A stretch of DNA of 64,000 bases from Escherichia coli (lineage in GTDB: Bacteria; Pseudomonadota; Gammaproteobacteria; Enterobacterales; Enterobacteriaceae). Shown here piece after piece: positions 38,110 to 64,000 of the stretch. How positions within the stretch are numbered: the first letter of the stretch is position 1; every line of letters starts with the position of its first letter. The stretch lies in NCBI RefSeq assembly GCF_050920415.1, contig NZ_CP169309.1. The stretch is one strand, 5' to 3'. Position numbers and translations under genes: made by a program. Below the pieces are notes generated by a model. That model was given only the letters and a program-made list of their open reading frames with translations. It was not told where the DNA came from and searched no databases.

Positions 38110-38140
38110 CCCTCTGTTTTTGCAGAGGGTTTTTGTTTTT
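38110..38140 (+). terminator. guaA rho-independent terminator (ccctctg-tttttg-cagaggg then T-run)
   Basis: Perfect 7-bp stem followed by tttttgttttt, about 50 bp after the guaA stop. Confidence 0.7.
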
Positions 38141-38196
38141 ATGTATTCATTTCTATTCACTCTACACCATATTTTTCGGCGGTACAGGTGACGGTA

Positions 38197-38211
38197 TTAC
38201 CTTAAAGGTAT
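38197..38211. promoter_or_regulatory. Palindromic operator-like site TTACCTTAAAGGTAT upstream of integrase
   Basis: Member of the TTACCT-N3-AGGTAA family, 1 mismatch. Confidence 0.45.
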
Positions 38212-38253
38212 ACTCTCATACCGTCATGAAAATGGTTTCTATACGGGTGAATT

Positions 38254-39504
38254 GTGCTTACCGATACAAAATTAAAAAACCTCAAGCCGCAGGACAAACT
38301 GTACAAGGTCTCCGATCGTGACGGGCTGTATGTAGCTGTGCTTACGTCAGGCACGGTCTCGTTTCGCTATGACTACCGTATCAACGGTCGCCGCGAAACA
38401 CTGGTAATCGGGCAGTATGGGCGTGACGGTATCAGCCTGGCAGAAGCGCGAGAAGAACTGATTGCTGCAAAGAAGCTGCTTAAAGCAGGCCAGTCGCCGG
38501 CTGCGGCTAAACGTGACGGTATCAAAAAGATTCGTGGTGCCGAGACGTTTGCGGTACATACCGACAGTTATATGAAACACGTCATCCTGGCTGACAGTAC
38601 CCGCGCAATGAAGCAGGCGGTGATCGACCGTGACATACTTCCGGTTCTTGGCAACAAAATGATGGCTGAAATTACCACATCGATGGTTCGTGATTTGTGT
38701 GACCGGATTGTCGAACGCGGTGGTCGGGCAACAGCAGTACAGGCCAGGGAGATCATCAGCAGCGTATACCGTCACGCCAATGACCGTGGTCATGGTTTGT
38801 TTAATCCTGCGGCTGACATTAAACCTTCGTCTATCGCCATATTTAAACCACGAGAGCGAACACTGACACCAGAAGAAATTGGCCTGTTCTTCCGCACGCT
38901 GGATGCCATTGGTGCTATGGGCACTATGAAAATGGCTTTAAAGCTGGTGCTTATCACTATGGTTCGTAAAGGCGAATTCACCAATGCAACGTGGGATGAA
39001 ATAGATTTTAAAAAATGGACATGGACAATTCCTTCAGACCGCATGAAGGGAAGCCGGGCGCACGTTATTTACCTGCCTAAACAGGCACAGGATATATTGG
39101 TTGGGTTGCAGATGTGCGCTGGTGGAAGTGAATATCTGGTTCCTGGTCGTTACAATTTCCGGAAGCCATTATCTAATGCCGCGCTGAACTCTCTGATCGA
39201 CAGAACGGTGAAAATAATAAATGAAGATGGTGAGCATATTCAGGGCTTCACCGTACACGATATGCGCCGTACAGCCAGTACGTTGTTGCATGAGGCTGGT
39301 TATCCTTCAGACTGGATTGAAAAGGCTCTGGCACATGAGCAGAAAGGTGTGCGCGCCGTATATAACAAAGCGGAATACGCCAGACAGCGCGCCTACATGT
39401 TGCAGCAGTGGGCCGATATGATTGATTCCTGGATTAACGGGGAGCATACGGATCTGATTCCGTTCTCCCCGTCGAAGTTTGAGAAGTGGATGGCGGGGGA
39501 ATAA
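38254..39504 (+). CDS. int: Tyrosine integrase (P4-type, N-terminal arm-binding domain)
   Basis: 416 aa, GTG start; N-terminal DUF4102-like region and C-terminal catalytic region (HDMRRTASTLL...ALAHE...Y). Confidence 0.85.
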   Translation: MLTDTKLKNLKPQDKLYKVSDRDGLYVAVLTSGTVSFRYDYRINGRRETLVIGQYGRDGISLAEAREELIAAKKLLKAGQSPAAAKRDGIKKIRGAETFAVHTDSYMKHVILADSTRAMKQAVIDRDILPVLGNKMMAEITTSMVRDLCDRIVERGGRATAVQAREIISSVYRHANDRGHGLFNPAADIKPSSIAIFKPRERTLTPEEIGLFFRTLDAIGAMGTMKMALKLVLITMVRKGEFTNATWDEIDFKKWTWTIPSDRMKGSRAHVIYLPKQAQDILVGLQMCAGGSEYLVPGRYNFRKPLSNAALNSLIDRTVKIINEDGEHIQGFTVHDMRRTASTLLHEAGYPSDWIEKALAHEQKGVRAVYNKAEYARQRAYMLQQWADMIDSWINGEHTDLIPFSPSKFEKWMAGE

Positions 39505-39507
39505 CGT

Positions 39508-39702
39508 TTAATAGTTCTGCTGATTTTCTTCCATCTCTGCTTCTGCTGCCAGTGATTCAATTTTGTTTTCGAATATTGCTGACAGTGTTGCAAATTCAGC
39601 ATCAGTGACGGCGGGAATTGGAACAAACCTGATCCCGCTGTGTGCAAGCATGTTTGCAGTTTCAAGGCATTTTCTTAAATCTGCTGGTGATGCCCTGTTC
39701 AT
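39508..39702 (-). CDS. Small hypothetical protein (64 aa), start overlaps the methyltransferase stop (ATGA)
   Basis: Sub-frame of ORF 39508-39822 beginning MNRASPADLRK; ATGA overlap with upstream gene suggests translational coupling. Confidence 0.3.
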   Translation of the reverse strand: MNRASPADLRKCLETANMLAHSGIRFVPIPAVTDAEFATLSAIFENKIESLAAEAEMEENQQNY

Positions 39703-40349
39703 GCAGCACGCTCCCGCCCCTGGTTGTCTGTTGGTGACAGCGGAGAATTGCTGAATGCATTTGTTAATCCGCCAATATCCAACGCGTATCCAGGGTGTAG
39801 TTGCACTGCCGGGTCTTCGCACTGATTACCCCAAACATCGAAGCCATGAGACGACTGGCGGGCGAATAGTTCAATGCGAGAAACATCGCCTAACAATTGC
39901 ACAAGTTTTTCACGAACGACATCTGGTTTTCTTGAGTGCTCAAGCCGCGGTGCGGTAAATGACTGAACGATCCCTGCATTAATGCGCGGAGGTAGTTTTC
40001 CCTTTACCGCAAACAGGCAATCTTCACTATTGGCGCGAGTCATGTGTCCCATACCCATAACAAGTTTATCTGGTTGTCGACTACCACATTTTATCCACGT
40101 GAAGCCCTTCATCGTCATCAGACGGAATCCCCAGGCTTCAACAACTTTTAGTGCTTCGAGTGGTTGTGTTGGCACCCACCACATGGCCAACAGACAGTTT
40201 TCATCGGCCAAATCCCACACAGGAAGGCGGCAGATATCCAGCACACTCATAACCGGATATTTAAAACCGGCACCGCGATTACCATCTGCGGCTTTGTCCC
40301 GGTATACCCAGGGTGGATCTGCATAGATTAGTGTGTATTTCTTAGTCAT
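39699..40349 (-). CDS. MT-A70 family DNA N6-adenine methyltransferase (orphan, no cognate nuclease seen)
   Basis: ORF 39699-40361; ATG at 40349 (MTKKYTLIYADPPW); DPPW catalytic motif. Confidence 0.7.
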   Translation of the reverse strand: MTKKYTLIYADPPWVYRDKAADGNRGAGFKYPVMSVLDICRLPVWDLADENCLLAMWWVPTQPLEALKVVEAWGFRLMTMKGFTWIKCGSRQPDKLVMGMGHMTRANSEDCLFAVKGKLPPRINAGIVQSFTAPRLEHSRKPDVVREKLVQLLGDVSRIELFARQSSHGFDVWGNQCEDPAVQLHPGYALDIGGLTNAFSNSPLSPTDNQGRERAA

Positions 40350-40641
40350 AAACCACCCCACAACATCCTATGCCGCTATAGTCGCCACGGCGAAGGCCGT
40401 TACCTTTTGTGATACATTGGTCCCTGCGAACCGCGATCCTTGCACGTTCAACATCACCAGAAGCAACATCCATACACTGAAGCCAAAGGTGGGCGGCAAT
40501 GCGGAACTGCCCTTTTTTCTCTCTTTCAATCGCGCGTTTTTCGATCTCTATCGCCGCAGGAGTAACGGCGACAATCTTTGACGGACTGCGCATTGAAACC
40601 TTGTTCATGTGATATTTTTCAAGTCGGCTTAACTTTCTCAC
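40342..40641 (-). CDS. PerC-family transcriptional regulator-like protein
   Basis: 99 aa; pattern ...IEREKKGQFRIAAHLWLQCMD...ERARIAVRRDQC resembles the PerC/Pch signature as I recall it. Confidence 0.45.
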   Translation of the reverse strand: MRKLSRLEKYHMNKVSMRSPSKIVAVTPAAIEIEKRAIEREKKGQFRIAAHLWLQCMDVASGDVERARIAVRRDQCITKGNGLRRGDYSGIGCCGVVYD

Positions 40642-40750: not shown

Positions 40751-40999
40751 TCATGCAGCGTTGCTCACGGGACGATATACACGTTGCTGAACAGGAGGTT
40801 TTTTACCCTGGAACTCTGCCGGGCTTGCTGCCTGACGTTCATCAAGCCAACGCTCAACTTCGTCACGGTTCCATGCGCAGCGTTTGTCAGTGATATACCA
40901 GCGTTTAGGAAATTCCCCTGCGCGCTCCATACGGTCGATAGTGCTCCATGACAGTGGCACCACCGCCAGGAGTTCCTTCTTACCTAATGCACCTTTCAT
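40751..40999 (-). CDS. AlpA-family phage transcriptional regulator / excisionase-like HTH protein
   Basis: 82 aa; HTH with ...LSWSTIDRMERAGEFPKR...WNRDEVERWL typical of AlpA/Xis. Confidence 0.7.
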   Translation of the reverse strand: MKGALGKKELLAVVPLSWSTIDRMERAGEFPKRWYITDKRCAWNRDEVERWLDERQAASPAEFQGKKPPVQQRVYRPVSNAA

Positions 41000-41048: not shown

Positions 41049-41930
41049 TTACATAGATGTTTCGTTTAATTCTTCCCGACGAACGCTGTAAACGTCGGTG
41101 GCTTTTGCCAGCAGTTCGTCATCATCTGAAAGTTTTTGTGCAATGTATTTGTAAGCCTTATCCAGTTCGGAGACAGTGCTGTAATTCATCGCTGCGCTGG
41201 TAAAGGCCATCAGCATTTCTTCTGGATCACGGCTATCCGCTTTACGAGTTTGCTCATCAGGCTTTTTCACTGGTTTAGCGTTGATCAGACTGTTCATTCC
41301 CGCAGCAGTAGTTGTTTGCGGAGTAATGTCTCGCTCAACGCGCGGTGCCGTTTCCTGTAATTCGTCAGGGGTGTAAACACCGAGAAGCACATCAGGAGCG
41401 TGCAGGCGAGCCCATCGTTTCGTGCAAAGATAGGCAAGCTGCTGGCGCGGATCCTGTTCCCACAATGGAGAGTTACGCACTCCGGCTTGCGCCATACTGA
41501 TGGTAAGCTCACGGGGTTCTGCTTCTCCTTTAAGAACTGCTGACACAGTTACCGTCAGATTCGGTGATTTATCTGTTTTGCCGTTAACATTCGACCAGTC
41601 ACCGCTCCAGCGATAATTCAGGCGTGTCGCTAGCAGGCTGGAAGAGGATACGACCGCGTTTACCAACTGTGCTTCGTAGCCTAACGTTCCGTTTACCACA
41701 TGCGTTTTCTGCGCCACGGCGAAAGGGTTCATTCCCCACTGTGCCGCCTGCATGGTCACCGCCAGACAATCGGCAGTTTTGCCTTCAAGATGTTTCGGTA
41801 CAGTCGCTTTGCTTTGTGACATCAACTCCGCGAAACGCACCAGTTGATTCATGCCCTCCGGGCTGAAGATTGCCGCAGCAGTACCTACAGTTGCGCCTGG
41901 TTGTGATGTGATTGCGATATCATTGCTCAT
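41049..41930 (-). CDS. RecT-family single-strand annealing recombinase
   Basis: 293 aa; RecT-like core; directly downstream of and overlapping a PD-(D/E)XK exonuclease gene. Confidence 0.75.
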   Translation of the reverse strand: MSNDIAITSQPGATVGTAAAIFSPEGMNQLVRFAELMSQSKATVPKHLEGKTADCLAVTMQAAQWGMNPFAVAQKTHVVNGTLGYEAQLVNAVVSSSSLLATRLNYRWSGDWSNVNGKTDKSPNLTVTVSAVLKGEAEPRELTISMAQAGVRNSPLWEQDPRQQLAYLCTKRWARLHAPDVLLGVYTPDELQETAPRVERDITPQTTTAAGMNSLINAKPVKKPDEQTRKADSRDPEEMLMAFTSAAMNYSTVSELDKAYKYIAQKLSDDDELLAKATDVYSVRREELNETSM

Positions 41931-42748
41931 ACGTACATATCCTGTTTACGTGCCCAGTCAGGGCGTTTAATAATTTCCACGCCGCCCCATTCATCATTGA
42001 TGCGGCATTCGTGATAGGTATTCAGATCCCGGCGGAACAGAGCGTGCCCGGCATCGACATCCGGCGCATCCAGCTCGAACACGCGTACCGGATACCGACC
42101 ACAATCAATGCTTTCGCTCACGGCAAGAAAGAAAAAACCATGCGACTGACCAGTAACCCTCATTGCGCCTTCGCGGTACATTGCGTCCTGCACGTGGTAG
42201 CGGAATTCCTCGATGTGGCGTGCAAAACGATCCATATCTGCAACCTTTTTCACGTCGACGATCACGTTGTGCTCGTTCAGCCATTTGTCTGGACGAATGC
42301 GGCACAACTCACCAGTCTCTTCATCATTCCAGTACATTGATGCTTCGCAGTAACCAGGTGCTTCCAGCATCCAGCGTGCCGCCGGGTGAGCCATTGCGCT
42401 ATCACGCATCAGCTCCAGTTTCCGCCACTGCTCGGCATCAAGTACCGTAATCCCCATATCCGCTACATCACGAAGAAATGCTTCTTCGTCAGCTTTACCT
42501 TGTTTCGTCCGACGATCGAACTTCGGTGAAACAATGAAGCGTTTGTCGAATTCTCCAGGCTCCAGAAGCAGAGAGTGCAATGCGGTTCCCATATCCAGTG
42601 CAGACTTTTTCTCTTCGTCTTCTGGTGCTGCCTGAACCCATTTAAGAAGCGCCGGATTCTTGGCAACCATGTCCAGTTGCGACTTACTCACGCCGTCACC
42701 GGCGTGGTAGTCTTCGTTGCTGATGTCGAAATAAATTCCCGGTTTCAT
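41927..42748 (-). CDS. PD-(D/E)XK-type exonuclease (RecE/YqaJ-like partner of RecT)
   Basis: 273 aa; motifs D..EYH, IVDVKK consistent with PD-(D/E)XK nuclease fold; 4-bp overlap with recT. Confidence 0.65.
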   Translation of the reverse strand: MKPGIYFDISNEDYHAGDGVSKSQLDMVAKNPALLKWVQAAPEDEEKKSALDMGTALHSLLLEPGEFDKRFIVSPKFDRRTKQGKADEEAFLRDVADMGITVLDAEQWRKLELMRDSAMAHPAARWMLEAPGYCEASMYWNDEETGELCRIRPDKWLNEHNVIVDVKKVADMDRFARHIEEFRYHVQDAMYREGAMRVTGQSHGFFFLAVSESIDCGRYPVRVFELDAPDVDAGHALFRRDLNTYHECRINDEWGGVEIIKRPDWARKQDMYV

Positions 42749-43050
42749 GCCGCTTCCCTCTGCCCATCAATCCGATCCGCCAGATCCCAGCGGGCGATAA
42801 TTGCCATTGCCTCGCGACGGTAGGCATCCATAAGTTCTTCGAACTCAGGGCTGTCTTTAGCTGCCTCCAGCACTTCCTGGCGAACGCCTTTGCCTGTTAC
42901 ACCGTCAAAAGTTGAGGCCAGTTGATGAAGCCGGATGCTATCAATCAGTTCAACTTGTCGGTCATATAGCTGTTCTGACAGGCGGTAGTCCTTGTCGAAT
43001 GCCAGCATGATTTTTTGAAGATTTTTCTGCTGATTAACGTTCATACCCAC
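42745..43050 (-). CDS. Hypothetical phage protein (101 aa)
   Basis: ORF with overlapping stop/start junctions inside the leftward early operon. Confidence 0.5.
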   Translation of the reverse strand: MGMNVNQQKNLQKIMLAFDKDYRLSEQLYDRQVELIDSIRLHQLASTFDGVTGKGVRQEVLEAAKDSPEFEELMDAYRREAMAIIARWDLADRIDGQREAA

Positions 43051-43051: not shown

Positions 43052-44086
43052 TCAATATTTGATATACGCGTCCTGCACTTTGCCGCCAGCGATAGCCAAC
43101 ATTGCTTTCTGCGCGAATTCTTCGGGAATGCCTTGGGCTATCAGATCTGCGATTACTCTGCTGTTAACGGTACGGCGATGCTCTTTATCTGCAGCTCGGC
43201 GCGATTCTTCGTCGGCGATACGCTTCTGTTCGTCAAGGCGGGCTTTTTCTGCCGCCTCTTGGCGTCGGCGTTCCTCGGCAACGGCTTCTTCTTTTTCGCG
43301 TCGTGCACGCTGCTCTGCTTCAATTCGCTGACGTTCTGCTACTTCAGCACGTGCTTTTTCTTCCGCCGCCAGGCGTTCCGCAGCCTCAATTTCAGCTTTC
43401 GCTTTTTGTTCAGCTTCGAGCCTGGCCTGTTCAGCAGCTTCCCGGCGGATATTCTCTTCTCGCTCAATGCGCGCTTTTTCCTCCGCTTCTTTGCGAAGTC
43501 GCTCCAGCTCAGCGGCTTCATGCTCGCGTTTTTGAGCTACTGCGAGTGATTCTTCCAGTTTCTGGATGGTTGAATCCTTGGCTACTCCAGCTTCTGCTGC
43601 GTACTCCTGCCAACTTTCATCAAGTGCTACTGATTTAGCCTCTTGAATTCGTTCCTGAATATCAGATGATGGCAAGTAGTTTCCGGAGAGATCGATCACG
43701 TCAGCTAGTGCTCGCAAATTTGTCAGGCGTTGTTGCAGTGCTTCAGTGCGTAATTTCTCCGCATTTTCCCACTCGGTGAGTGGGCGGCGTACTTCATCAC
43801 GAAGCCGATCGCATTCGGTTACGAAGCGTCGTAACTCTGCTTCAACTACTTTCGGCTGTTCTTTCAGGCGTTTCAGATAATCACGTCCTGGTTTTTCTAC
43901 CGCTGTTTTACTTCTTGAAACCTTCGCAGCCAGAGATGCAATGCGCTTTCTGCCTTTGTCTGTGCTAATGTCAGGCACTTCATTAACACCTTCACGGATC
44001 TGCTCGAGAAACTTTTCCAGCCCTTTTTCAACGTAAATTCTTGGTGCCATGTCTGGTGTGATTTCGATGATTGATAATTCACTCAT
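43052..44086 (-). CDS. Hypothetical coiled-coil protein with E/R/A-rich low-complexity repeat region
   Basis: 344 aa; residues ~190-300 are almost pure E/A/R/K heptad-like repeats. Confidence 0.55.
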   Translation of the reverse strand: MSELSIIEITPDMAPRIYVEKGLEKFLEQIREGVNEVPDISTDKGRKRIASLAAKVSRSKTAVEKPGRDYLKRLKEQPKVVEAELRRFVTECDRLRDEVRRPLTEWENAEKLRTEALQQRLTNLRALADVIDLSGNYLPSSDIQERIQEAKSVALDESWQEYAAEAGVAKDSTIQKLEESLAVAQKREHEAAELERLRKEAEEKARIEREENIRREAAEQARLEAEQKAKAEIEAAERLAAEEKARAEVAERQRIEAEQRARREKEEAVAEERRRQEAAEKARLDEQKRIADEESRRAADKEHRRTVNSRVIADLIAQGIPEEFAQKAMLAIAGGKVQDAYIKY

Positions 44087-44244
44087 TTGCTAACCTCCTC
44101 CCATATCTCGTTATCGTTGGCCACATCGCGAGCTTCTTTGCTGACGAAAGCCCACTTAATGCCTTCCTGTAAGGTGCGGAACTTCCAGCTCATGAATCCG
44201 CATGCAGTAACGCAGTACCAACCGTTGATGATTTTCCACTGCAT
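44083..44244 (-). CDS. Small hypothetical protein (53 aa), first gene of leftward early operon
   Basis: Not in ORF track (below 60 aa); MQWKIINGWYCVTACGFMSWKFRTLQEGIKWAFVSKEARDVANDNEIWEEVSK; stop overlaps next start. Confidence 0.3.
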   Translation of the reverse strand: MQWKIINGWYCVTACGFMSWKFRTLQEGIKWAFVSKEARDVANDNEIWEEVSK

Positions 44245-44325
44245 AACTTGTTACCTCGGTCTGTTACCGTTGAGGTAATAATTATGCGTATCTGGTTTGA
44301 TGTCAATAGATATGAGTTAAAAAAA

Positions 44326-44397: not shown

Positions 44398-44982
44398 TTA
44401 TTGTTTGTTTTTTTCGTTCTGGTTGATGACAAATTCAATGTAACTTTCGATCTTTGCCTTCTCTGTTTCAGGTAACAATGCGTAGCGCGAGCGGTCATAG
44501 TTGATAGTTGCAGGGTCATGCGGATGAATCAGTAGTTCATATCCGTGACGCCCGAATGCAGATGCAACATTCTCCAGGGTGGAAATGGAAACGCTGACCT
44601 CATTGTTTAACAGGCGGCTGATTGTCACCTGGGCGACGCCGGATGCGCGGTGAAGTTTTCCCTGTGTTGAAAGGTCGCGGCTTTCGCTCATCCAGCGTTC
44701 CAGGTTGTGAGCCGCCAGCTGACCAATGTCGCTTGGGCCGACAGGCTGAAAACCTTCCTGAGAAAGCGAGCGATCGATATCAAGCCAGTTACGGGGTTTA
44801 TTGGCGGCAGCTTCAATTTTTCGCGCAACCTGGTCGCCGATAACCTTCTTGCCAAGAGCCCAGCGGTTTACCAGATTTGCCTGAGTTCCAAGTTTTTCTG
44901 CCATCCGCGTCTGAACACCATTGAATTCACGGTCGATCAAGTCGTTGAGATTTTGCCTGCGGACGTCCTGGATACTTTTCAT
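44398..44982 (-). CDS. Phage CI-like repressor (HTH, Phage_CI_repr-type)
   Basis: 194 aa; N-terminal HTH (QTRMAEKLGTQANLVNRWALGKK) and second HTH-like segment; divergent from a Cro-like gene across an operator-rich spacer. Confidence 0.55.
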   Translation of the reverse strand: MKSIQDVRRQNLNDLIDREFNGVQTRMAEKLGTQANLVNRWALGKKVIGDQVARKIEAAANKPRNWLDIDRSLSQEGFQPVGPSDIGQLAAHNLERWMSESRDLSTQGKLHRASGVAQVTISRLLNNEVSVSISTLENVASAFGRHGYELLIHPHDPATINYDRSRYALLPETEKAKIESYIEFVINQNEKNKQ

Positions 44983-45037
44983 TTTCTGGAAAATCGCCTC
45001 ATATATGAATCAGTAGATGATTCAATTTAAAGCAATA

Positions 45038-45100
45038 TTACCCAACAGGTAAATGCACCTCATAGGTAACTATCCTTGATTTTTGTTACCTTATGGGTGA
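45038..45100. promoter_or_regulatory. Divergent switch region with three operator-like palindromes (45038-45052, 45055-45069, 45086-45100)
   Basis: TTACCCAACAGGTAA, GCACCTCATAGGTAA, TTACCTTATGGGTGA; arrangement reminiscent of OR1-OR3 between cI and cro. Confidence 0.5.
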
Positions 45101-45136
45101 ATATTTATTATCTGAAATAAATATCAGGCAATAGCT

Positions 45137-45367
45137 ATGAGCGATAACGGACATTTCGATTTCAAAAAGCACTGGCTTGCACTTACTCCGGATGAGCGTG
45201 AAGCCTTCGCACAGGAAGCCGGAACGACGAGTCACTATATCCAGACTCACTTAACAGGTAAGCGAAAAATGCCAGGTAAAGTATTGATGAATGGGCTTTT
45301 TAAAGCCTGTAAAACAAGACAATGGCTGCGCTCAAAAGCAGAACTGGCATACTTCTTCTACTCATGA
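45137..45367 (+). CDS. Cro-like / YdaS-type HTH regulator
   Basis: 76 aa; HTH segment FAQEAGTTSHYIQTHLTGKRKMPGKVL; divergent from the CI-like gene. Confidence 0.5.
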   Translation: MSDNGHFDFKKHWLALTPDEREAFAQEAGTTSHYIQTHLTGKRKMPGKVLMNGLFKACKTRQWLRSKAELAYFFYS

Positions 45368-45517: not shown

Positions 45518-45718
45518 ATGGAAATCATTACACGTATTGATGCCGCAAAGCGCGGACTTAAACGCTACTACACCGGAAAACCATGTAAGCACGGACATGA
45601 CAGTGAACGCTGGGTTTACAACGGACACTGTGTTGAGTGCACCATGGAATCAAACCGTCGCATTAGGGCAGAGATTAAGCAGATCATGATTAATTCCTCC
45701 CCACAACATTCAAGCTGA
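45518..45718 (+). CDS. Small putative zinc-binding phage protein (66 aa)
   Basis: ATG at 45518 within ORF 45455-45718; CKHGH...CVEC motif. Confidence 0.4.
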   Translation: MEIITRIDAAKRGLKRYYTGKPCKHGHDSERWVYNGHCVECTMESNRRIRAEIKQIMINSSPQHSS

Positions 45719-47796: not shown

Positions 47797-47857
47797 ATCG
47801 ACGATCTTTTTAGTTATCAATGTAATCAATAAGTTATGTGGATAAGCGAGGGTAAAG

Positions 47858-48697: not shown

Positions 48698-48698
48698 T

Positions 48699-48920: not shown

Positions 48921-48921
48921 T

Positions 48922-49119: not shown

Positions 49120-49129
49120 GGCATAACAA

Positions 49130-53221: not shown

Positions 53222-53298
53222 GGCGTGGCATGCAGGATTCGAACCTGCGACCGACCGCTTAGAAGGCGGTTGCTCTGTCCAACTGAGCTAATGCCACA
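53222..53298 (-). tRNA. tRNA-Arg (anticodon UCU), argU-like, prophage-encoded
   Basis: Folded by hand: acceptor GTGGCAT/ATGCCAC, D-arm GCTC..GAGC, anticodon stem ACCGC/GCGGT with loop CTTCTAA, T-arm GCAGG-TTCGAAT-CCTGC, discriminator G, CCA. Confidence 0.8.
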
Positions 53299-55918: not shown

Positions 55919-55920
55919 TC

Positions 55921-56624: not shown

Positions 56625-57617
56625 ATGACAATGGCTGTTAAAGGCTTAACTGCGCTAACGCTGGCTGACTGGGGTAAGCGCGTCGATCCAAACGGGAAAG
56701 TCGATAAGATTATCGAGCTTCTCGGTCAAACTAACCCGATCCTTCAGGATATGCCTTTTGTCGAAGGGAACCTTCCTACCGGACACCGAACCACCATTCG
56801 TTCTGGTTTACCTTCAGCTACCTGGCGTTTGCTGAACTATGGCGTACAGCCAAGCAAATCAACCACAGTGCAGGTAACCGATTCCGTTGGCATGCTGGAA
56901 ACCTATGCTGAAGTCGATAAGTCACTGGCTGATCTGAACGGCAATACCGCCGAATTCCGCCTGTCTGAAGACCGCGCATTTATTGAAGCGATGAATCAGC
57001 AGATGGCGCAGACGCTGTTTTATGGTGATTCCAGCGTTAACCCTCAGCAGTTTATGGGACTGTCCTCCCGCTATTCCAGCCTGTCTGCGGGTAATGCTCA
57101 GAACATCATTGATGCTGGTGGCACGGGTACAGATAACACCTCAATCTGGTTAGTGGTGTGGGGCGAAAACACCGTGCATGGCATCTTCCCGAAAGGGCAG
57201 AAGGCTGGCATCCAGATGGAAGATAAAGGCCAGGTGACACTGGAAGATGCTAATGGCGGCAAGTACGAAGGCTATCGCACCCATTATAAATGGGATAACG
57301 GACTTGCTCTGCGTGACTGGCGTTATGTTGTTCGCATTGCAAACATCGATGTCAGCAATCTTTCAGAACCTTCCTCTGCCGCAAATATTGCGAAGTTGAT
57401 GGTTAAAGCACTGCATCGCATTCCAAACCGTGGCATGGGCCGCCCGGTGTTCTACATGAACCGCACTGTAGGCCAGGCTCTTGATCTGCAATCTCTGGAG
57501 AAAACATCTCTGGCGATCAGCGTAAAAGAGACAGAAGGCGAGTGGTGGACTTCATTCCGTGGTGTACCAATCCGTGAAACTGATGCGCTTCTGGAAACAG
57601 AAGCCCGCGTGGTGTAA
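56625..57617 (+). CDS. Putative major capsid protein
   Basis: 330 aa; RBS agaggaa; position after scaffold. Confidence 0.6.
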   Translation: MTMAVKGLTALTLADWGKRVDPNGKVDKIIELLGQTNPILQDMPFVEGNLPTGHRTTIRSGLPSATWRLLNYGVQPSKSTTVQVTDSVGMLETYAEVDKSLADLNGNTAEFRLSEDRAFIEAMNQQMAQTLFYGDSSVNPQQFMGLSSRYSSLSAGNAQNIIDAGGTGTDNTSIWLVVWGENTVHGIFPKGQKAGIQMEDKGQVTLEDANGGKYEGYRTHYKWDNGLALRDWRYVVRIANIDVSNLSEPSSAANIAKLMVKALHRIPNRGMGRPVFYMNRTVGQALDLQSLEKTSLAISVKETEGEWWTSFRGVPIRETDALLETEARVV

Positions 57618-57668: not shown

Positions 57669-58106
57669 ATGATCACCGACAAACTGTTGATGTTCTCCGA
57701 AGCTCAGGCGGTTACGAATACCGCGGCTTCTACTGACGTAATCGATCTCGGTCCAATTGACGGAAAACGTCGTGATATCGGCGTGGGTTACCCGCTTGAG
57801 TTTTGGGCGCTGGTTAACACAGCCGCCGCGGCAAGCGGTGATGCAACTGTAAACATCCAGTTGCAGACGAGTGAGAATAACAGCTCATGGACCACTATTT
57901 ATGATAGTGGCGCACTGGCAAAGACCGCCCTGACAGCAGGTAAACGAGTTGTTTCTGCAAAGGTGCCTGCCGGTGTTCAGCGATATCTGCGTGTTAACTA
58001 CTCCGTCGCAACTGGCCCACTAACGGCTGGCGAATTCACTGCTGGTATCAGTCTTGATGTTGATGCCAATACGCCGTATCCGATCCGCTCAAAAGTAACT
58101 GGTTAA
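57669..58106 (+). CDS. Hypothetical virion protein (145 aa)
   Basis: ORF with RBS; in structural module. Confidence 0.45.
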   Translation: MITDKLLMFSEAQAVTNTAASTDVIDLGPIDGKRRDIGVGYPLEFWALVNTAAAASGDATVNIQLQTSENNSSWTTIYDSGALAKTALTAGKRVVSAKVPAGVQRYLRVNYSVATGPLTAGEFTAGISLDVDANTPYPIRSKVTG

Positions 58107-58107: not shown

Positions 58108-58452
58108 GTGATATCGATGTCAGGTGAGAAACCAAGATACCGCGTTATGCGCCTCTCTCATATCCATAACACTCTGTGGCCGGAGGGGGCAGAAATCGAA
58201 TACGAAGGTGAGCCTGGTAGCGCACTGGAACCTGTTAACGATGCAGCCAGACAGGCAAAAGCAAAGGTAGCAGGAAAGGTGACTATGGCAGCAACCAGCA
58301 CCAAAATCATCAACGATGTGTCAGATGATGGTGAACTGGATAAGCTCCGTGAAGAGTACGAATTGCTCTTTAACGAGGAGCCACACCATAACGCCAAAGC
58401 CGAAACGCTCCGCGAGAAGATCGCAGATAAGCGTAAAGAACTGGGCGTGTAA
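58108..58452 (+). CDS. Hypothetical virion protein (114 aa)
   Basis: ORF abutting previous stop; followed by terminator. Confidence 0.45.
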   Translation: MISMSGEKPRYRVMRLSHIHNTLWPEGAEIEYEGEPGSALEPVNDAARQAKAKVAGKVTMAATSTKIINDVSDDGELDKLREEYELLFNEEPHHNAKAETLREKIADKRKELGV

Positions 58453-58490: not shown

Positions 58491-58502
58491 GCAGGAGTGT
58501 AT

Positions 58503-58826
58503 ATGGAACTCGTAAACCTCAAAACCGGCACTGACAGCTACCAGGATGAGAGCGGAGAAACCAGAACTCGCGATGAATACCCGTGGGGGCTGTGCATCAC
58601 TCTTAATAACGACACATTGAATAAGCTGAAGGCACAACCTCAGGGCGTCGGAACAGAAGTGATGATAACTGCAAAGGCTGTTATTCGAGGCCTGTCTGCC
58701 AGAGAAACTGACGATGGTGTTAATCGCAGCGCCGATCTGCAGATCACTGATATGGCGATCGCTCCTGTTTCCAGGGATGTAGAAAAATCAGCGGCTGAAA
58801 CCCTGTACGGCAATGGGGGTGAGTAA
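58503..58826 (+). CDS. Hypothetical virion protein (107 aa)
   Basis: ATG at 58503 after RBS caggag. Confidence 0.45.
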   Translation: MELVNLKTGTDSYQDESGETRTRDEYPWGLCITLNNDTLNKLKAQPQGVGTEVMITAKAVIRGLSARETDDGVNRSADLQITDMAIAPVSRDVEKSAAETLYGNGGE

Positions 58827-59431
58827 TGGCCTCTGTAGTAGAGATCTGCAATCGTGCGCTGTCCAATATTGGCAATAGCCGCAGCATTAACAGCCTGACG
58901 GAAGCCAGTAAGGAAGCGGGGGAATGTTCGCTGCACTTTGAGGCCTGCCGTGATGCTGTGCTTTCTGATTTTGACTGGAACTTTGCTACCAAACGCGTGG
59001 CGCTTGCAGATACGAGCAATCCACCGCCTGACTGGGAATATGCGTATCAGTACCCGTCAGATTGTCTGCGCATTACTGAAATTATGCTTCCTGGTGTACG
59101 CAATCCAACAGCAGCAATGCGCGTTCAGTACGAAGTTGGTGCAGACACCGACGGAACAGGAAAGTTGATCTACACAGACCAGCCGCAGGCATGGCTCAAG
59201 TATGTCTCTCGCGTTTCAGATGTGAACATGTTTGATGCCATTTTTATGGAGGCGTTGGCCTGGCGTCTTGCGGCAGCCATTAACATGGCGCTGACTGGGA
59301 ATGCGGATCTCGGTACATTTGCTCTCAATATGTACAATCGCGTGATTCTTAGTGCTGGCTCGCATAGCCAGAATGAATCACAGGAACCACAGCCACCGGT
59401 TGACGAGTTTACCATTGCGAGGTTGTCCTGA
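58826..59431 (+). CDS. Putative tail/adaptor protein (201 aa)
   Basis: Start overlaps previous stop; position before a large tail-like protein. Confidence 0.4.
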   Translation: MASVVEICNRALSNIGNSRSINSLTEASKEAGECSLHFEACRDAVLSDFDWNFATKRVALADTSNPPPDWEYAYQYPSDCLRITEIMLPGVRNPTAAMRVQYEVGADTDGTGKLIYTDQPQAWLKYVSRVSDVNMFDAIFMEALAWRLAAAINMALTGNADLGTFALNMYNRVILSAGSHSQNESQEPQPPVDEFTIARLS

Positions 59432-61902
59432 TGGCTATCAGTTGGATCCAGCCCAGCTTTGCCGGTGGTGAGATTGGACCGTCGTTGTACGGTCGTATCG
59501 ACATGGCGAAGTACCAGGTGGCATTGCGCAAGTGCGATAACTTTATCGTGCGGCAGTATGGCGGCGTTGAGAATCGACCTGGTACGCGTTTTGTCGGTGC
59601 CGCCAAATACCCAAATCGGAAATGCCGCCTGATCCCGTTCCAGTTCTCGACGGTTCAGACCTACGCTCTGGAGTTCGGACACCAGTACATGCGCGTTATC
59701 AAAGATGGTGCGTTGGTGCTGAACAGCAGCAATGTTATTTATGAAATTGCCACGCCATATACTGAAGCCGATCTGTTCCGAATTAAATTCACGCAAAGCG
59801 CCGACGTGCTTACGCTGGTTCACCCGGCATACCCGCCGAAAGAGTTGCGCCGCTATGCGCATGATAACTGGCAACTGGTTGATGTGGTAACGAAGAACGG
59901 GCCATTTGAAGATATCAATATTGACGAGTCAGTGACGGTTTATGCCAGCGCCAGCACCGGGACAATTACGTTAACGGCAAGCGCCTCTATTTTTGGCGCG
60001 GAGCAGGTAGGCAAATTGTTCTATCTGGAACAGCCTGCAGTGGATTCTGTGCCGGTATGGGAAACCAGTAAGAGTACGTCGATTGGCGATATTCGCCGTG
60101 CAGACAGTAACTACTATCGCGCCGTTACAGCAGGCAAAACAGGCACTTTGCGCCCTTCGCATACAGAAGGCACATCATGGGATGGCTGGGGCGGATCCGG
60201 TGATGATGATACCGGCATTGAGTGGGAGTATCTGCACAGTGGTTTTGGCATTGCCCGTATCTCTGCTGCAAATGGAACTACTGCAACTGCCGAGGTGATT
60301 TCCTATATCCCTTCGCAGGTCGTTGGCGAGGATAATGCCAGCTATAAATGGGCTAAATATGCCTGGAACAGTGTTAATGGTTATCCTGGCACTGTTGTTT
60401 ATTATCAACAACGTCTTTACTTCGCCGCATCGACTGCGTTCCCTCAGACTATCTGGGCCAGCCGTACTGGGGATTATAAGGATTTTGGCAAAAGCAATCC
60501 TACGCAGGATGATGACAGAATTATCTACACCTATGCCGGGCGTCAGGTTAATGAGATCCGTCACCTGATTGATGTAGGTTCGCTGGTGGCGCTGACTTCC
60601 GGAGGTGAGTACGTCATCACCGGCGACCAGAACAAAGTGTTAACCCCATCATCATTTGCATTTAGCTCTCAGGGATCAAATGGCTCAAGCAACGTCCCAC
60701 CAATTGCTGTGGCGAATATTGCTCTGTTCGTCCAGGAGAAAGGCAGTGTTGTCCGTGATCTGGCCTACTCATTCGATGTTGACGGCTATCAGGGGAACGA
60801 CCTTACTATCCTTGCCAATCATCTTTTTCAGAAGCACAGCATTGTTGACTGGTGCTTCTCTATTGTCCCTTACTCCAGCGCCTTCTGCATTCGTGATGAC
60901 GGTAAATTACTGGTGATGACCTATTTGCGTGATCAACAGGTTTTTGCATGGGCACCACAGTCCAGTACCGGAAAATATGAAAGCACATGCAGTATCAGCG
61001 AAGGAAATGAAGATGCGGTGTATTTCGTCGTTAACCGAACCGTTAACGGGCAAACAGTGAGATACATCGAGCGGCTGTCCAGCCGTTTATTTACCAGCGA
61101 TGAAGATGCTTTCTTTGTTGATTCTGGCCTTAGCTATGATGGAAGAAATACGTCTGACAGAACGATGACCATCACTGGTGGTTCTGGTGAATGGGATTAC
61201 CGCGTGGAATATACAATCAGTATTTCTGGTGGTGCGTACTTCACCAGTAGTGATGTCGGTGCGCAACTACAATTCCCTTATACCGGAACTGATCCTGATA
61301 CTGGCGATGAAGTGTCAAAAGAATTACGTTGCGACATTATTTCTGTAACCAGCAATACCGCTGTAGTGGTTCGTGCTAACAGGAACGTCCCGCCATCCCT
61401 CAGGAATGTGGCCACCACGAACTGGCAGATGGCGCGCCGGACATTTGGAGGCCTGTCTCATCTTGAAGGCCAGACCGTAAACATTCTCTCTGATGCGAAC
61501 GTGGAACCACAGAAAGTGGTTTCCGGAGGTGCCGTCACGCTGGAATCTCCGGGGGCTGTAGTGCACATCGGCCTGCCAATAACTGCTGAATTCGAAACAC
61601 TGGATATCAACATTAACGGACAGGAAACGCTGCTGGACAAAAAACAGGTGATCCCATCCGTTACTCTGGTTGTGAATGCCAGCCGCGGCATCTGGGCGAC
61701 TACGCCCGGCGGTAAATGGTACGAATATCCACAGCGTGAATTCGAGTTCTACGATGATCCTGTTGATGATGCTACCGGAAAAGTAGAAGTGAAACTGGAC
61801 AGTAACTGGGGCAAAAACGGACGTGTAAAAATCCGTCAGCTTGATCCGTTGCCGCTGTCTGTTCTTGCCGTTATTCCTCGCCTTACTGTTGGGGGATTCT
61901 GA
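59431..61902 (+). CDS. Large structural protein, putative tail tube/nozzle protein (823 aa)
   Basis: Size and position in structural module; ATGA overlap with previous gene. Confidence 0.5.
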   Translation: MAISWIQPSFAGGEIGPSLYGRIDMAKYQVALRKCDNFIVRQYGGVENRPGTRFVGAAKYPNRKCRLIPFQFSTVQTYALEFGHQYMRVIKDGALVLNSSNVIYEIATPYTEADLFRIKFTQSADVLTLVHPAYPPKELRRYAHDNWQLVDVVTKNGPFEDINIDESVTVYASASTGTITLTASASIFGAEQVGKLFYLEQPAVDSVPVWETSKSTSIGDIRRADSNYYRAVTAGKTGTLRPSHTEGTSWDGWGGSGDDDTGIEWEYLHSGFGIARISAANGTTATAEVISYIPSQVVGEDNASYKWAKYAWNSVNGYPGTVVYYQQRLYFAASTAFPQTIWASRTGDYKDFGKSNPTQDDDRIIYTYAGRQVNEIRHLIDVGSLVALTSGGEYVITGDQNKVLTPSSFAFSSQGSNGSSNVPPIAVANIALFVQEKGSVVRDLAYSFDVDGYQGNDLTILANHLFQKHSIVDWCFSIVPYSSAFCIRDDGKLLVMTYLRDQQVFAWAPQSSTGKYESTCSISEGNEDAVYFVVNRTVNGQTVRYIERLSSRLFTSDEDAFFVDSGLSYDGRNTSDRTMTITGGSGEWDYRVEYTISISGGAYFTSSDVGAQLQFPYTGTDPDTGDEVSKELRCDIISVTSNTAVVVRANRNVPPSLRNVATTNWQMARRTFGGLSHLEGQTVNILSDANVEPQKVVSGGAVTLESPGAVVHIGLPITAEFETLDININGQETLLDKKQVIPSVTLVVNASRGIWATTPGGKWYEYPQREFEFYDDPVDDATGKVEVKLDSNWGKNGRVKIRQLDPLPLSVLAVIPRLTVGGF

Positions 61903-62366
61903 TGATTGGTGTTCAAATTATTCCCGCAACCGAAGAGCATCTTCAGATGATTTTGCCGGATGTTCGTCAGGCTGATATTGACGAACTGTATGCGGTATCG
62001 CTGATGACTACCGAAGATGCGCTGCGTGTTGGTCTGCGCACTGCGACTATGGCCTGGTCAGGGTTCGCGAACGGAGAACTGGTAACCATGTTTGGTGTAT
62101 CTCCGGCGTCAATGATCGGTGGCAATGGTACGCCCTGGCTGGTCGGGACCAGCCGTATTGAAAAATATCAGAAGACATTTCTTCGCCACTGCCACCCTGT
62201 ATTGCGGCAGATGCTGGCAGTTTATCCGCGCCTGGAAAACTACGTCGACGAGCGAAACCATGTTGCCAAAGCATGGCTCCACTGGCTTGGATTCAGGCTT
62301 GAAGAAGCCGCGCCTTATGGTGCTCTTGGTCTTAATTTCCACAGATTTCACATGGAGAGAAAATAA
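61902..62366 (+). CDS. Hypothetical virion protein (154 aa)
   Basis: ORF overlapping previous stop. Confidence 0.45.
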   Translation: MIGVQIIPATEEHLQMILPDVRQADIDELYAVSLMTTEDALRVGLRTATMAWSGFANGELVTMFGVSPASMIGGNGTPWLVGTSRIEKYQKTFLRHCHPVLRQMLAVYPRLENYVDERNHVAKAWLHWLGFRLEEAAPYGALGLNFHRFHMERK

Positions 62367-62911
62367 TGTGCGATCCGGTTATTGCTGGTGGCGCAATGCT
62401 CGCCATGAGTGGCATTCAGGCATACACCCAGTACCAACAGGGAAAGTATGCCTCGAAGGTTGCAGAAGCGAACGCAGATATAGCCACAGCTCAGGCAAAT
62501 GATGCAATAAATAGGGGTAACGCTGAAGCTGAGCAACGGCGCAGAGAGACCCGACAGCGGCTTGGTACACAGGCGGCGACAATGGGGGCGACCGGCGCCG
62601 ATTTATCTACAGGTAACGCGCTGGATATATTTGGTGACACTGCTCAGTTTGGCGCCCTTGATTCGCTGACGACGGTGAATAACGCGCAACGCGAGGCTTA
62701 CGGTTATCAGGTTCAGGCTGCTAACTATAAAGCAGAAGCCAGTTCAGCCCGTAAACAGGGGAATGTGGGAGCAGCAACAACATTGCTCACTGCGCCTCTG
62801 AAGGCATACGGTGCGTACCAGATGTTTGGTGGGACGTGGAGTCCGTTTACTCAAAGCACTCCTGCGCCAATCGGGGCAGCAGCAGGAACCAGATTACCTG
62901 GAGGATTATAA
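62366..62911 (+). CDS. Hypothetical virion protein (181 aa), Ala/Gly/Gln-rich
   Basis: ORF overlapping previous stop. Confidence 0.45.
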   Translation: MCDPVIAGGAMLAMSGIQAYTQYQQGKYASKVAEANADIATAQANDAINRGNAEAEQRRRETRQRLGTQAATMGATGADLSTGNALDIFGDTAQFGALDSLTTVNNAQREAYGYQVQAANYKAEASSARKQGNVGAATTLLTAPLKAYGAYQMFGGTWSPFTQSTPAPIGAAAGTRLPGGL

Positions 62912-64000
62912 TGCCAGTCGTACCAACAGTATCCGGACGTCAGGTTGAGAGCCGTGGAGTTCAGTCAGCAGGCTTGCAGACGTTTTCTCAGCCAGGTATT
63001 GGTGATGCTTTTGTTCGGGCAGGGGCAGAGACAATTGATGTTTTTGGTCAGGCAAAACAGCGTGCCAATATCGCTCTGGCTCAGGAGGCATCCCTTAAAC
63101 TCAGTCAGACAGGCAGCGATCTGCTGAATAACCCTGAAACAGGTTTGCTTAACCTGAAAGGGAAAAATGCTATTGGAAAAGGTCAGGAGTATACGCAGCA
63201 GTTTGATGCTCAGATCGAACAACTGGCTATGTCGCTGCCGGATGAACAGGCTCGTAATGCTTTCATGCAGCAGGCGCAGCAGCAGCGTATTCAGTTCACT
63301 ACGCAGGCCGGGCGGCACGAGATAGGGCAAATAAATGCCTACGAAGAAGGTCAGTTTCAGGCGACGCTGCTGAACAATGGTAAAAATGCCGCAGCATTGT
63401 ATGGCGACAATGCCGCATACGTATTGGCTAATAAGCAAACTTTCCAGCAAATTGAGGAGTACGGTGCTGCACATGGCTGGAGCGACGAGCAAATACAGGC
63501 CAAGAAAATCGAGTTTAAAGAGAAGGTTGCTGATGCAGCATTGTCCCAGTGGTCGGCAAACAATGCGATCTCATTTATCCAAAGTAATGGCGAGTTAAGC
63601 GATACTGCTGCTGGAGCTCGCCGTGCTGTAGCAGATAGTGACTCTTCCGAGCGTGCCCGTGGCATACGCAACAATAACCCAGGAAATCTCGAATACAGCA
63701 AAACTAATCCGTGGGTAGGCCAGACCGGTGATGATGGTCGATTTGCTAAATTCGAAACACCTGAACACGGGATTCGTGCATTAGGGCGGAACCTGATGTC
63801 GTATCAGAGGCAGGGTATTGATACCGTCAGCGAGATAATTAATCGCTGGGCACCGCCTACTGATAAAAATGACACTATGTCGTATATCAAAGCAGTGTGC
63901 GAACAACTTGGCGTTTCTGCTGATGAGCCTCTCGATGCATCTAATCCTGATACCCTGAAGGCGCTTTGTGCAGCCATTATCCATCATGAGAACGGTAGCC
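62911..64000 (+). CDS. Large virion-associated protein, N-terminal 363 aa only (continues beyond window); contains GIRNNNPGNLEY motif
   Basis: Frame-1 reading frame open from ATG 62911 (taATG overlap) to window end with no stop; not in ORF track because it is unterminated. Confidence 0.5.
   Translation, partial: MPVVPTVSGRQVESRGVQSAGLQTFSQPGIGDAFVRAGAETIDVFGQAKQRANIALAQEASLKLSQTGSDLLNNPETGLLNLKGKNAIGKGQEYTQQFDAQIEQLAMSLPDEQARNAFMQQAQQQRIQFTTQAGRHEIGQINAYEEGQFQATLLNNGKNAAALYGDNAAYVLANKQTFQQIEEYGAAHGWSDEQIQAKKIEFKEKVADAALSQWSANNAISFIQSNGELSDTAAGARRAVADSDSSERARGIRNNNPGNLEYSKTNPWVGQTGDDGRFAKFETPEHGIRALGRNLMSYQRQGIDTVSEIINRWAPPTDKNDTMSYIKAVCEQLGVSADEPLDASNPDTLKALCAAIIHHENGS

Follow-up and report, generated by a model that had tools for sequence, protein, structure and literature searches.

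Positions 38047 to 64000 of the analyzed Escherichia coli DNA (64,000 nucleotides, here called the window) almost certainly represent the left arm, extending from attL into the ejection-protein genes, of a temperate podovirus prophage of the phiV10/epsilon15 type, genus Uetakevirus. Both this kind of prophage and its integration site at guaA are already known, and the element is a real but ordinary case. The window holds about 26 kb of it (25,954 bp, the left two thirds); the right third, about 14 kb of genes with the tailspike, the lysis genes, and attR, lies past position 64000. At 38 kb, the GC content drops from about 0.54 to a range of 0.43 to 0.53. The open reading frames and their PHROG families gave an early gene order of integrase, DUF1382, MT-A70 methylase, PerC, AlpA/Xis, RecT, RecE-like, repressor, and cro-like genes, followed by an O/DnaT-like gene, a P-like loader, DUF1064, an ea22/eaA block, terS, and terL. 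The late order is portal, protease, major capsid protein, cement and staple proteins, tail adaptor, 823-amino-acid (aa) nozzle, and internal virion proteins. The hallmark virion genes (terS, terL, portal, protease, HK97-fold capsid protein, gp10 staple, nozzle, and internal proteins) were thus present and in order, as judged by PHROG, the PDB, and colinearity with phiV10. Megablast matched the prophage part to seven phage records at a coverage of at least 80% and an identity of 97 to 98%; PAS61, ZX5, HEMP4, and TL-2011b covered 81 to 86% of it. Nucleotide similarities of about 70% for a genus and about 95% for a species are used in ICTV practice; over the window part, the product of coverage and identity was about 0.87 to 0.94, placing the element above the genus-level cutoff and below the species cutoff for each record compared. 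All best phage matches are classified as Uetakevirus, and the capsid and staple proteins match epsilon15 gp7 and gp10 in PDB 3J40, which bears out the assignment to epsilon15/phiV10-type temperate podoviruses made in the first-pass annotation. A short-tailed (podovirus) virion would be expected from the nozzle, the T7 gp14-family internal proteins, and the electron microscopy of relatives (PMC9782041).

The target of integration is the host GMP synthase gene guaA (36484 to 38061, + strand), located by the ORF list, by alignment, and by PGAP, which gives it the same coordinates in E. coli MFDS1022581. When the junction was aligned to the empty site of K-12 and to the two ends of phiv142-3, the attL core ATTGAGTGGGAATGATT, 17 bp of attB/attP identity, fell at 38047 to 38063. 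This core spans the final four codons of guaA, its stop codon TGA (38059 to 38061), and two further bases, and because it carries these codons, guaA stays intact. A single copy of ATTGAGTGGGAATGATT was found in the window and in each empty site, and two copies, 40,632 bp apart, were found in the SCU-116 genome. Strain MFDS1022581 provides a near-isogenic empty site, in which guaA is followed by yfgI. It differs from window positions 1 to 38063 by 2 mismatches in 38,063 bp, and the identity stops exactly after ATGATT at 38063. The comparison with K-12 likewise revealed an insertion, as had been claimed. The same 17-mer has been published as the attP of phiV10, epsilon15, and ZX5; in that work attB, attL, and attR of ZX5 were determined by PCR and Sanger sequencing, and the core was called proven for phiV10 and epsilon15 (PMC9782041). 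The first-pass annotation had likewise named guaA as the integration site of such phages. Phage DNA had been thought to start after the guaA terminator, at 38110; however, the element begins at the att core, inside the guaA 3′ end and upstream of that terminator. Nor is the terminator guaA's own. A terminator scan identified a rho-independent stem-loop at 38108 to 38131 with a T tract to about 38141 (hairpin fold of −16.4 kcal/mol; z score, −4.07), which is phage-borne and takes the place of the native guaA terminator, the stem being common to both. It is part of the phage P′ arm (38064 to 38253, + strand), delineated by terminator scan, RNA folding, and repeat analysis, which also contains candidate arm-type Int sites: GGTGACGGTAT at 38187 to 38197 and an inverted ATACCGTCA at 38218 to 38226. 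In the reconstructed attP, repeat analysis found the 11-mer GGTGACGGTAT again at −82 in the P arm. The prophage boundary is fixed precisely by the core and the intact guaA; the prophage as a whole is of little consequence outside annotation. As a side observation, an exact 30-mer scan of GTDB representative genomes gave matches in distant taxa only (Pseudomonas, Halioglobus, Haliea, and a gut metagenome-assembled genome [MAG]), since conservation of the guaA 3′ end reaches well outside Escherichia; in a Halioglobus MAG, an integrase with 55% identity is located downstream of the same core.

The integrase gene (38254 to 39504, + strand) reads away from guaA, as first described. Its 416-aa product matched phrog_1 (4e-87) and is identical to phiV10 Int at 414 of 416 positions (99.5%). 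Pfam assigned Arm-DNA-bind_3 to residues 2 to 87, Phage_int_M to residues 113 to 190, and Phage_integrase to residues 204 to 375; judged by these arm-binding, central, and C-terminal catalytic domains, the protein is a P4-type tyrosine recombinase, and the motifs VRKGE, HDMRRT, and AVYNKAEY are legible in its sequence. The adjoining early-left genes are all on the − strand. They encode a small DUF1382 protein (39508 to 39702; phrog_292 and the PGAP name in relatives), an MT-A70 family DNA methyltransferase (39699 to 40361; phrog_359, 2e-120; PADLOC MTase_II, 3e-77), a PerC-family transcriptional activator (40342 to 40641; phrog_868, 6e-62), and an AlpA-family helix-turn-helix (HTH) protein (40751 to 40999). 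The last is a candidate excisionase, matching phrog_66 and phrog_2790 ("excisionase and transcriptional regulator"), and phiV10p36 is annotated as AlpA family. A RecT annealase (41049 to 41930) and a RecE-like PD-(D/E)XK exonuclease (41927 to 42748) follow, paired by their matches to phrog_561 and phrog_412 and by the note on phiV10p37. Next come three proteins with no assigned function, of 101 aa (42745 to 43050), 344 aa with a coiled coil (43052 to 44086), and 54 aa (44083 to 44247); their families, phrog_856, phrog_1376, and phrog_898, are all of unknown function, and Pfam, PADLOC, and NCBIfam gave no match to these ORFs. Blastn gaps showed that the 344-aa gene is present in phiv142-3, SCU-116, and NADC1036 and absent from phiV10 and EFF60. 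The single PDB match of its product (E value, 0.0016) falls in the coiled-coil region and was dismissed as compositional. Across the accessory ORFs (344, 101, 279, 261, 123, and 83 aa), PADLOC, NCBIfam, Pfam, and PDB searches returned no defense-system or otherwise informative family, the MT-A70 methylase being the sole exception.

The lambda-like early region that had been proposed was recovered: the repressor and cro genes diverge, the replication genes are of the O/P type and have iterons, and an ea22 block is present. The CI-type repressor (44398 to 44982, − strand; 194 aa, two HTH motifs, phrog_8) is identical to phiV10p40 at all 194 positions; therefore, the same immunity group as that of phiV10 is predicted. 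Between it and the cro-like gene lies a putative divergent promoter/operator region (44983 to 45136), suggested by a repeat search, which found imperfect inverted repeats around ACCTCATAGGTAA and TTACCTTATGGGT, and by a promoter-like site on the + strand at 45083 to 45111. The genes to its right are on the + strand and encode a Cro-like repressor (45137 to 45367) and a small early protein (45518 to 45718), with matches to phrog_35 and phrog_1081, and an O/DnaT-like initiator (45734 to 46549) and a lambda P-like helicase loader (46546 to 47331), with matches to phrog_1032 and phrog_109. Inside the initiator gene, at 46039 to 46137, are origin-type iterons, 2.6 tandem copies of 24 nucleotides with a 100% match. 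An accessory block in the nin/ea position (47449 to 50368, + strand) was defined by PHROG matches, blastn against SCU-116, and mosaic matches. It comprises DUF1064 (47449 to 47796), ea22/eaA-like ORFs (47858 to 49915), and a phrog_536 regulator (50021 to 50368). The stretch from 48104 to 49633, a 1.5-kb ea22/eaA swap, is the sole module unlike that of the closest prophage, SCU-116 (blastn), and the ea22/eaA block is a mosaic with segments 95 to 97% identical to Stx and lambdoid phages.

The late genes, on the + strand except where stated, begin with the small (50409 to 51083; phrog_51) and large (51080 to 52555; phrog_2) terminase subunits; window position 50369 corresponds to the start of the deposited linear phiV10 genome (blastn). 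Two units on the − strand follow. The first is a Gp49-family moron gene of 123 aa (52646 to 53017; phrog_322 and PGAP name), for which the terminator scan found an own terminator at 52625 to 52606. The second is a tRNA-Arg with the anticodon UCU (53221 to 53297; ARAGORN; Rfam tRNA, 72 bits), followed by a terminator with a 14-bp stem at 53177 to 53142; at the gathering threshold, Rfam reported nothing besides this tRNA between 37.5 and 64 kb. AGA codons occur at 4.9 per 1,000 in the phage genes versus 0.86 in the window's host genes. The head module, with matches to phrog_332, phrog_528, phrog_458, and phrog_212, consists of a small protein (53725 to 53931), the portal (53946 to 55625), a Bbp19-family protein (55622 to 55918), a 233-aa prohead protease (55915 to 56616), and the major capsid protein (56625 to 57617). 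The 233-aa protein had been read as a scaffold but belongs to a PHROG protease family and is a "peptidase" in PGAP. The capsid protein matched 3J4U at 1e-128 and epsilon15 gp7 (3J40) at 2e-85. PHROG and PGAP names identified a Bbp16-family cement protein (57669 to 58106) and a 114-aa protein (58108 to 58452), and PGAP names together with a match to epsilon15 gp10 (PDB 3J40; 2e-22) identified a gp10-type capsid staple (58497 to 58826). The tail pair, with matches to phrog_394 and phrog_376, is formed by a 201-aa tail/adaptor protein (58826 to 59431) and an 823-aa protein (59431 to 61902). The latter had been called a tail protein of about 820 aa and is the tail nozzle (PDB 8CK1, "Tail Nozzle"; 2.8e-217). 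Three internal virion proteins, with PHROG matches to phrog_308, phrog_418, phrog_992, and phrog_1044 (61902 to 64000), complete the window: a 154-aa ejection protein (61902 to 62366), a 181-aa protein (62366 to 62911; PGAP, "virion core protein, T7 gp14 family"), and a transglycosylase-type protein, of which the window end at 64000 leaves the first 363 of about 837 aa (the phiV10p18 gene measures 2,514 bp).

The comparisons show the sequence identities, the junction, an empty site, and genes that are intact and colinear; the activity of each step in the following scheme is inferred, as is everything to the right of 64000. The integrase would have recombined the attP core with its 17-base counterpart, identical in sequence, at the guaA 3′ end; the core supplies the last four codons and the stop codon, and guaA is thereby preserved. 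The native 3′ flank would have moved to attR, which is expected to read as a second ATTGAGTGGGAATGATT followed by TGATCCCTGCACTATG and, farther on, yfgI. The phage-borne terminator, having the same stem as the native one, may end the guaBA transcript and shield int from read-through. Lysogeny would be kept by the CI-type repressor, divergent from the cro-like gene; upon induction, the AlpA-type Xis and Int would mediate excision, and the O/P-type module with its iterons would then drive replication. The virion would be built with the terminase, the HK97-fold capsid with cement and staple proteins, the nozzle, and the T7-like internal proteins, and the phage tRNA-Arg(UCU) would serve the AGA codons, whose frequency in the phage genes is about fivefold higher.

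Could the element be a defective (cryptic) remnant, integrated as described and no longer excising or forming particles? The tailspike, the lysis genes, and attR lie past the window end, where a deletion is possible; some relatives (TW10722 and 90-3040) carry IS insertions, and decay does occur in this phage group, since the nozzle gene of the closest prophage, SCU-116, has an internal stop. However, attL and every gene within the window are intact, all of the approximately 35 genes being full length and each as long as its counterpart in viable phages, and the late region aligns to the viable phiV10 over 13.6 kb with zero gaps. Moreover, the near identity to the nonlysogen (2 of 38,063 bases different) points to a recent gain, or to a loss in the sister strain, and thus to a mobile element. 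We therefore regard a remnant as unlikely. That this copy is a new species-level Uetakevirus mosaic, with cargo (the 344-aa coiled-coil protein, the Gp49-family gene, and the opposite-strand tRNA-Arg(UCU) unit, together with the phage-supplied guaA terminator) serving an undescribed host-relevant or antidefense role, is similarly improbable. The species-level part of this reading arises because no compared record reaches 95% in coverage times identity over the window part. Altered 3′ processing or expression of guaBA would be one possible effect.

Two readings that do away with a phiV10-type phage altogether are very improbable. Genomic islands and other integrative elements also use the guaA 3′ end; GIsul2 and other guaA-targeting islands share with our element a tyrosine integrase and the conserved target, GIsul2 recombining at an 8-bp site, GAGTGGGA, that lies inside the core, and the Halioglobus integrase adjoins the same core. 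Yet these islands are nonphage elements that carry resistance and transfer genes without virion genes, whereas the window contains all the head, tail, and packaging genes of a podovirus, with 98% identity to phages that have been isolated and form plaques, and no conjugation, resistance, or satellite genes; its structural gene content refutes an island or satellite. A P22-like or lambda-like prophage merely resembling the epsilon15-type gene order, which the lambda-like early region and the lambdoid ea22/eaA segments might suggest, is hardly conceivable either. Megablast and blastn refute it, the terminase, portal, capsid, staple, nozzle, and internal proteins being of the phiV10/epsilon15 kind and the integrase, att site, and repressor being those of phiV10.

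A search of 5,426 complete E. coli genomes found the same guaA-integrase junction in 534 (about 10%). A non-coli Escherichia host had been suspected, as identity is no higher than 93.3% to K-12 over xseA-guaBA and about 94.5% to EFF60 over der-hisS, but judged by species label this was rejected because a RefSeq "E. coli" genome matches 38,061 of 38,063 bases; on these alignments, the host lineage is simply divergent in this region. An exact-protein look-up of the window's SinH returned no record. The nonlysogen MFDS1022581 is a handy natural control for lysogeny effects. O-antigen-modifying genes had been presumed general to these phages but do not occur in all of them. phiV10 has oac, and a 646-aa acyltransferase adjoins the SCU-116 tailspike, but no O-antigen-modifying gene is annotated in phiv142-3. 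A probable O-antigen-modifying and receptor-specific module just past the window could influence how the strain is serotyped and how susceptible it is to phages.

The best overall matches were Escherichia phage phiv142-3 (MN187550; about 93% coverage [93 to 93.5%] at about 98% identity [97.9% by megablast; segments, 96 to 98%]) and the SCU-116 guaA prophage (NZ_CP051719; 94% coverage, 99.2 to 99.7% identity outside 48104 to 49633). Both share the integration site and the gene order, in which RecT and RecE are separate and the 344-aa gene is present. In phiv142-3, modules are replaced at window positions 48104 to 48241, 48702 to 49869, and 52643 to 53024, and its integrase is split in the record, whereas that of the window prophage is intact, as is the nozzle gene interrupted in SCU-116. 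Uetakevirus phiV10 (Perry et al. 2009, as cited in PMC3293862) aligned by blastn to about 89.5% of the 25,954 bp at 86 to 98% identity, mostly 96 to 98%. From terS up to position 64000, its late genes are colinear with the window, and 13,632 bp align gap-free at 98.0% identity. The two have one and the same attP core, and the Gp49-family gene is on the opposite strand in both. The terL-portal spacer, site of the tRNA-Arg in the window, also aligns without gaps, the phiV10 record carrying no tRNA annotation. In phiV10, however, RecE and RecT are fused, the 344-aa gene is missing, and the ea22/nin block is a different one, so that window positions 48.0 to 50.0 kb align in patches only; its oac and O157-specific tailspike fall in the part beyond the window. 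The Salmonella phage epsilon15, the type podovirus of the group (capsid, PDB 3J40), has the same genome architecture and homologous gp7 and gp10, and its late genes show 77.5% identity at the DNA level; only 32% of the query aligned by megablast, and its early region and serotype-conversion genes differ. Its attP core equals that of the window, and its repressor identity is 42% (PMC9782041). vB_EcoP_ZX5 (82% coverage, 97.9% identity) differs in accessory modules; experiments verified that it, too, integrates at this 17-bp core within the guaA 3′ end, its lysogens release phage spontaneously, and lysogeny had no effect on the host phenotypes tested there (PMC9782041). For another relative, a circular record of 38.7 kb, pNADC1036guaAphage, was deposited beside a chromosomal copy, which shows that the phage group excises.

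Between 38.0 kb and the window end, the GC content dropped from about 0.54 to 0.43-0.53, and the ORF list displayed a compact phage-type array. The first-pass annotation had attributed this DNA to an epsilon15/phiV10-type prophage. A megablast search with positions 38100-63000 against 50,697 phage records bore this out. Seven records covered at least 80% of the query at 97-98% identity, namely, phiv142-3 (93% at 97.9%), vB_EcoP_PAS61, vB_EcoP_ZX5, HEMP4, TL-2011b (two records), and phage PH444, while phiV10 and epsilon15 themselves were placed lower in the list. Matched records with a taxonomy line were classified as Uetakevirus. The linear phiV10 record, which is permuted relative to the window (its base 1 corresponds to 50369), aligned to about 89.5% of the phage DNA in blastn, including a gap-free match of 13,632 bp (98.0%) that begins upstream of terS and runs to the end of the window. 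The repressors of the two elements were identical (194/194), and the integrases agreed at 414 of 416 residues. The major capsid protein matched the solved capsids of BPP-1 (PDB 3J4U, E 1e-128) and epsilon15 gp7 (PDB 3J40, E 2e-85), a 109-aa protein matched the epsilon15 gp10 staple (PDB 3J40, E 2e-22), and an 823-aa protein matched a solved podovirus "Tail Nozzle" (PDB 8CK1, E 3e-217).

The junction was mapped by aligning the window, the empty K-12 site, and both ends of the phiv142-3 record. Common to all was a 17-bp identity, ATTGAGTGGGAATGATT, which located the attL core at 38047-38063. It comprises the final four codons of guaA (I-E-W-E), its TGA stop (38059-38061), and two further bases. 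One copy was found in the window and one in each empty site, whereas the prophage of strain SCU-116 is flanked by two copies 40,632 bp apart. The same 17-mer has been reported as both attP and attB of ZX5, with attB, attL, and attR verified by PCR and sequencing, and is stated there to be proven for phiV10 and epsilon15 (PMC9782041); the TL-2011b insertion was reported as "within guaA" (PMC3293862). E. coli strain MFDS1022581 (NZ_CP169399.1) differed from window positions 1-38063 at only two bases (15199 and 22182) and continued after the core into TGATCCCTGCACTATG..., followed by the native terminator and yfgI, its guaA site being empty of prophage; it provides the best control, a natural one. 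Therefore, the insertion is real and precise and lies inside the guaA 3' end. The annotated insertion thus stood, given the empty sites in K-12 and MFDS1022581, but its placement downstream of the guaA terminator did not.

MFDS1022581 and the strain of the window form a near-isogenic non-lysogen/lysogen pair. Over positions 1-38063, identity with K-12 and EFF60 reached only about 93-94.5%, a divergence that is unusual for E. coli and concerns either the lineage or the chromosomal segment. Within this host part, a giant adhesin gene (25267-33364) lies downstream of sinH and sinI as two overlapping ORFs (25267-26580 and 26336-33364), in an island that resembles CS54 and is located between yfgJ and xseA. 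This island shared only 74-83% identity with its EFF60 counterpart. PGAP calls the MFDS1022581 gene a frameshifted pseudogene.

The terminator previously taken as guaA's own proved to be phage DNA. The hairpin (38108-38131; -16.4 kcal/mol, z = -4.07) and its T tract were present at the start of the phage records; the hairpin shares the 7-bp stem CCCTCTG/CAGAGGG with the native guaA terminator but differs in loop and spacer. Since the core completes guaA and the hairpin is phage-borne, the phage restores both the gene end and a terminator, the usual arrangement for phages integrating into 3' ends of genes. Compared to the native terminator (2100-2128 of locus L010), the phage version (38108-38141) has a longer spacer from the stop codon, and it looks like a diverged copy of a guaA 3' flank carried in the P' arm. 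This arm also contains GGTGACGGTAT (38187-38197) and the inverted ATACCGTCA (38218-38226). The former 11-mer recurs in relatives, where it sits in the P arm at 82 bp to the left of the core, and the integrase has an Arm-DNA-binding domain; the repeats are candidate arm-type integrase sites.

A 30-base stretch of the guaA 3' end that contains the core was exactly conserved in distant Gammaproteobacteria, i.e., a Halioglobus MAG (locus L006), Haliea alexandrii (L008), and Pseudomonas (L005 and L009). The Halioglobus integrase (L006, 10248-11432) was 55% identical to that of the window and has its start some 300 bp downstream of the core; at the boundary of the Haliea locus, another integrase begins. 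The site used by GIsul2, GAGTGGGA, falls within this core as well (PMC9376610). These findings identify the guaA 3' end as a widely used integration hotspot, with one integrase lineage serving it.

The gene order was established by PHROG searches on about 38 ORFs. The integrase is followed by DUF1382, an MT-A70 DNA methylase, a PerC-type activator, an AlpA/excisionase-type HTH protein, RecT, a RecE-like exonuclease, and three function-unknown proteins. One early-left protein of 344 aa (43052-44086, minus strand; phrog_1376, function unknown) has a long Glu/Arg/Ala-rich coiled coil and gave no match in Pfam, NCBIfam, or PADLOC; its gene was carried by phiv142-3, SCU-116, and NADC1036 but not by phiV10 or EFF60. 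Next come the gene of a CI-type repressor and, divergent from it, a cro-like gene, then an O/DnaT-like initiator, a helicase loader resembling lambda P, and DUF1064, as well as an accessory block of ea22/eaA-like proteins with a small regulator. The packaging and head genes encode the small and large terminase, portal, protease, major capsid, cement, and staple proteins; the 233-aa product belongs to a protease family and is not the scaffold that had been annotated. Tail proteins of 201 and 823 aa and two internal virion proteins follow, and the window end cuts through a large transglycosylase-type internal protein, leaving only the start of its gene. All phage genes in the window matched their counterparts in plaque-forming relatives in length, and a comparison with phiV10 showed zero indels in the late region. 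The prophage may be complete and inducible, its right third, including attR, lying outside the window.

Between the repressor and cro-like genes lie imperfect inverted repeats and a promoter-like site, for which a regulatory role is predicted. Three adjoining short tandem arrays with periods of 18, 24, and 12 nt occupy 46039-46170 in the O/DnaT-like gene. The 24-nt unit is repeated 2.6 times with a 100% match (46076-46137), with related 18-nt repeats just upstream. Resembling the lambda ori, the arrays are probably origin iterons. Between terL and the portal gene, two units lie on the opposite strand: a Gp49-family gene (52646-53017) and a tRNA-Arg(UCU) (53221-53297; ARAGORN; Rfam, 72 bits), which is followed by a minus-strand terminator with a 14-bp stem (53177-53142). 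AGA codons amounted to 4.9 per 1000 in phage genes versus 0.86 in the window's host genes, consistent with codon supply, the usual role of a tRNA of this kind. In the phiv142-3 record, the tRNA is placed on the other strand. An 83-aa plus-strand ORF (53040-53291), annotated as PhiV10p04 in phiV10, runs antisense across the tRNA and two terminators of the minus strand. Since PGAP makes no call for its counterpart in SCU-116, this ORF is unlikely to be a real gene.

Among 5,426 complete E. coli genomes, 534 contained the guaA-integrase junction, scored as 80% or more of a 4-kb query. At least 80% of a 25-kb phage query was found in 356 genomes. The closest prophages (SCU-116, MS20673, AH19K002, and Eco_23-2678) were 99.2-99.7% identical outside 48104-49633, an ea22/eaA-type mosaic of pieces common to lambdoid and Stx phages that stands in place of a 0.7-kb segment in these prophages. 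The SCU-116 tail nozzle gene (locus L011, 20681-23152) has an internal stop and is a PGAP pseudogene, while the window copy (59431-61902) is intact. The deposit of E. coli NADC1036 comprises, besides the integrated prophage, a circular "plasmid" of 38.7 kb, "pNADC1036guaAphage" (NZ_CP076267.1). A single core joins the P and P' arms of this record; thus, the assembly captured the phage as an excised circle. The circle has a serine/threonine phosphatase gene beside int where the window has DUF1382.

The original observation was confirmed and its interpretation supported, with corrections to the junction position, the terminator's origin, and the protease. Beyond the window's extent, SCU-116 encodes two more large virion proteins, a BRO-N antirepressor, a tailspike candidate of 743 aa and, on the opposite strand, a member of an acyltransferase family (646 aa). 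Its lysis genes code for two holins, a GH19 endolysin, and a DUF2514 spanin, and attR and yfgI come after them. phiV10 carries oac at the position of the acyltransferase, whereas phiv142-3 has no such gene annotated. Therefore, O-antigen-modifying genes beyond the window end, as the first-pass annotation had expected, are plausible for this copy. Published work already describes the element together with its att site and mechanism, and the element is common in E. coli genomes.
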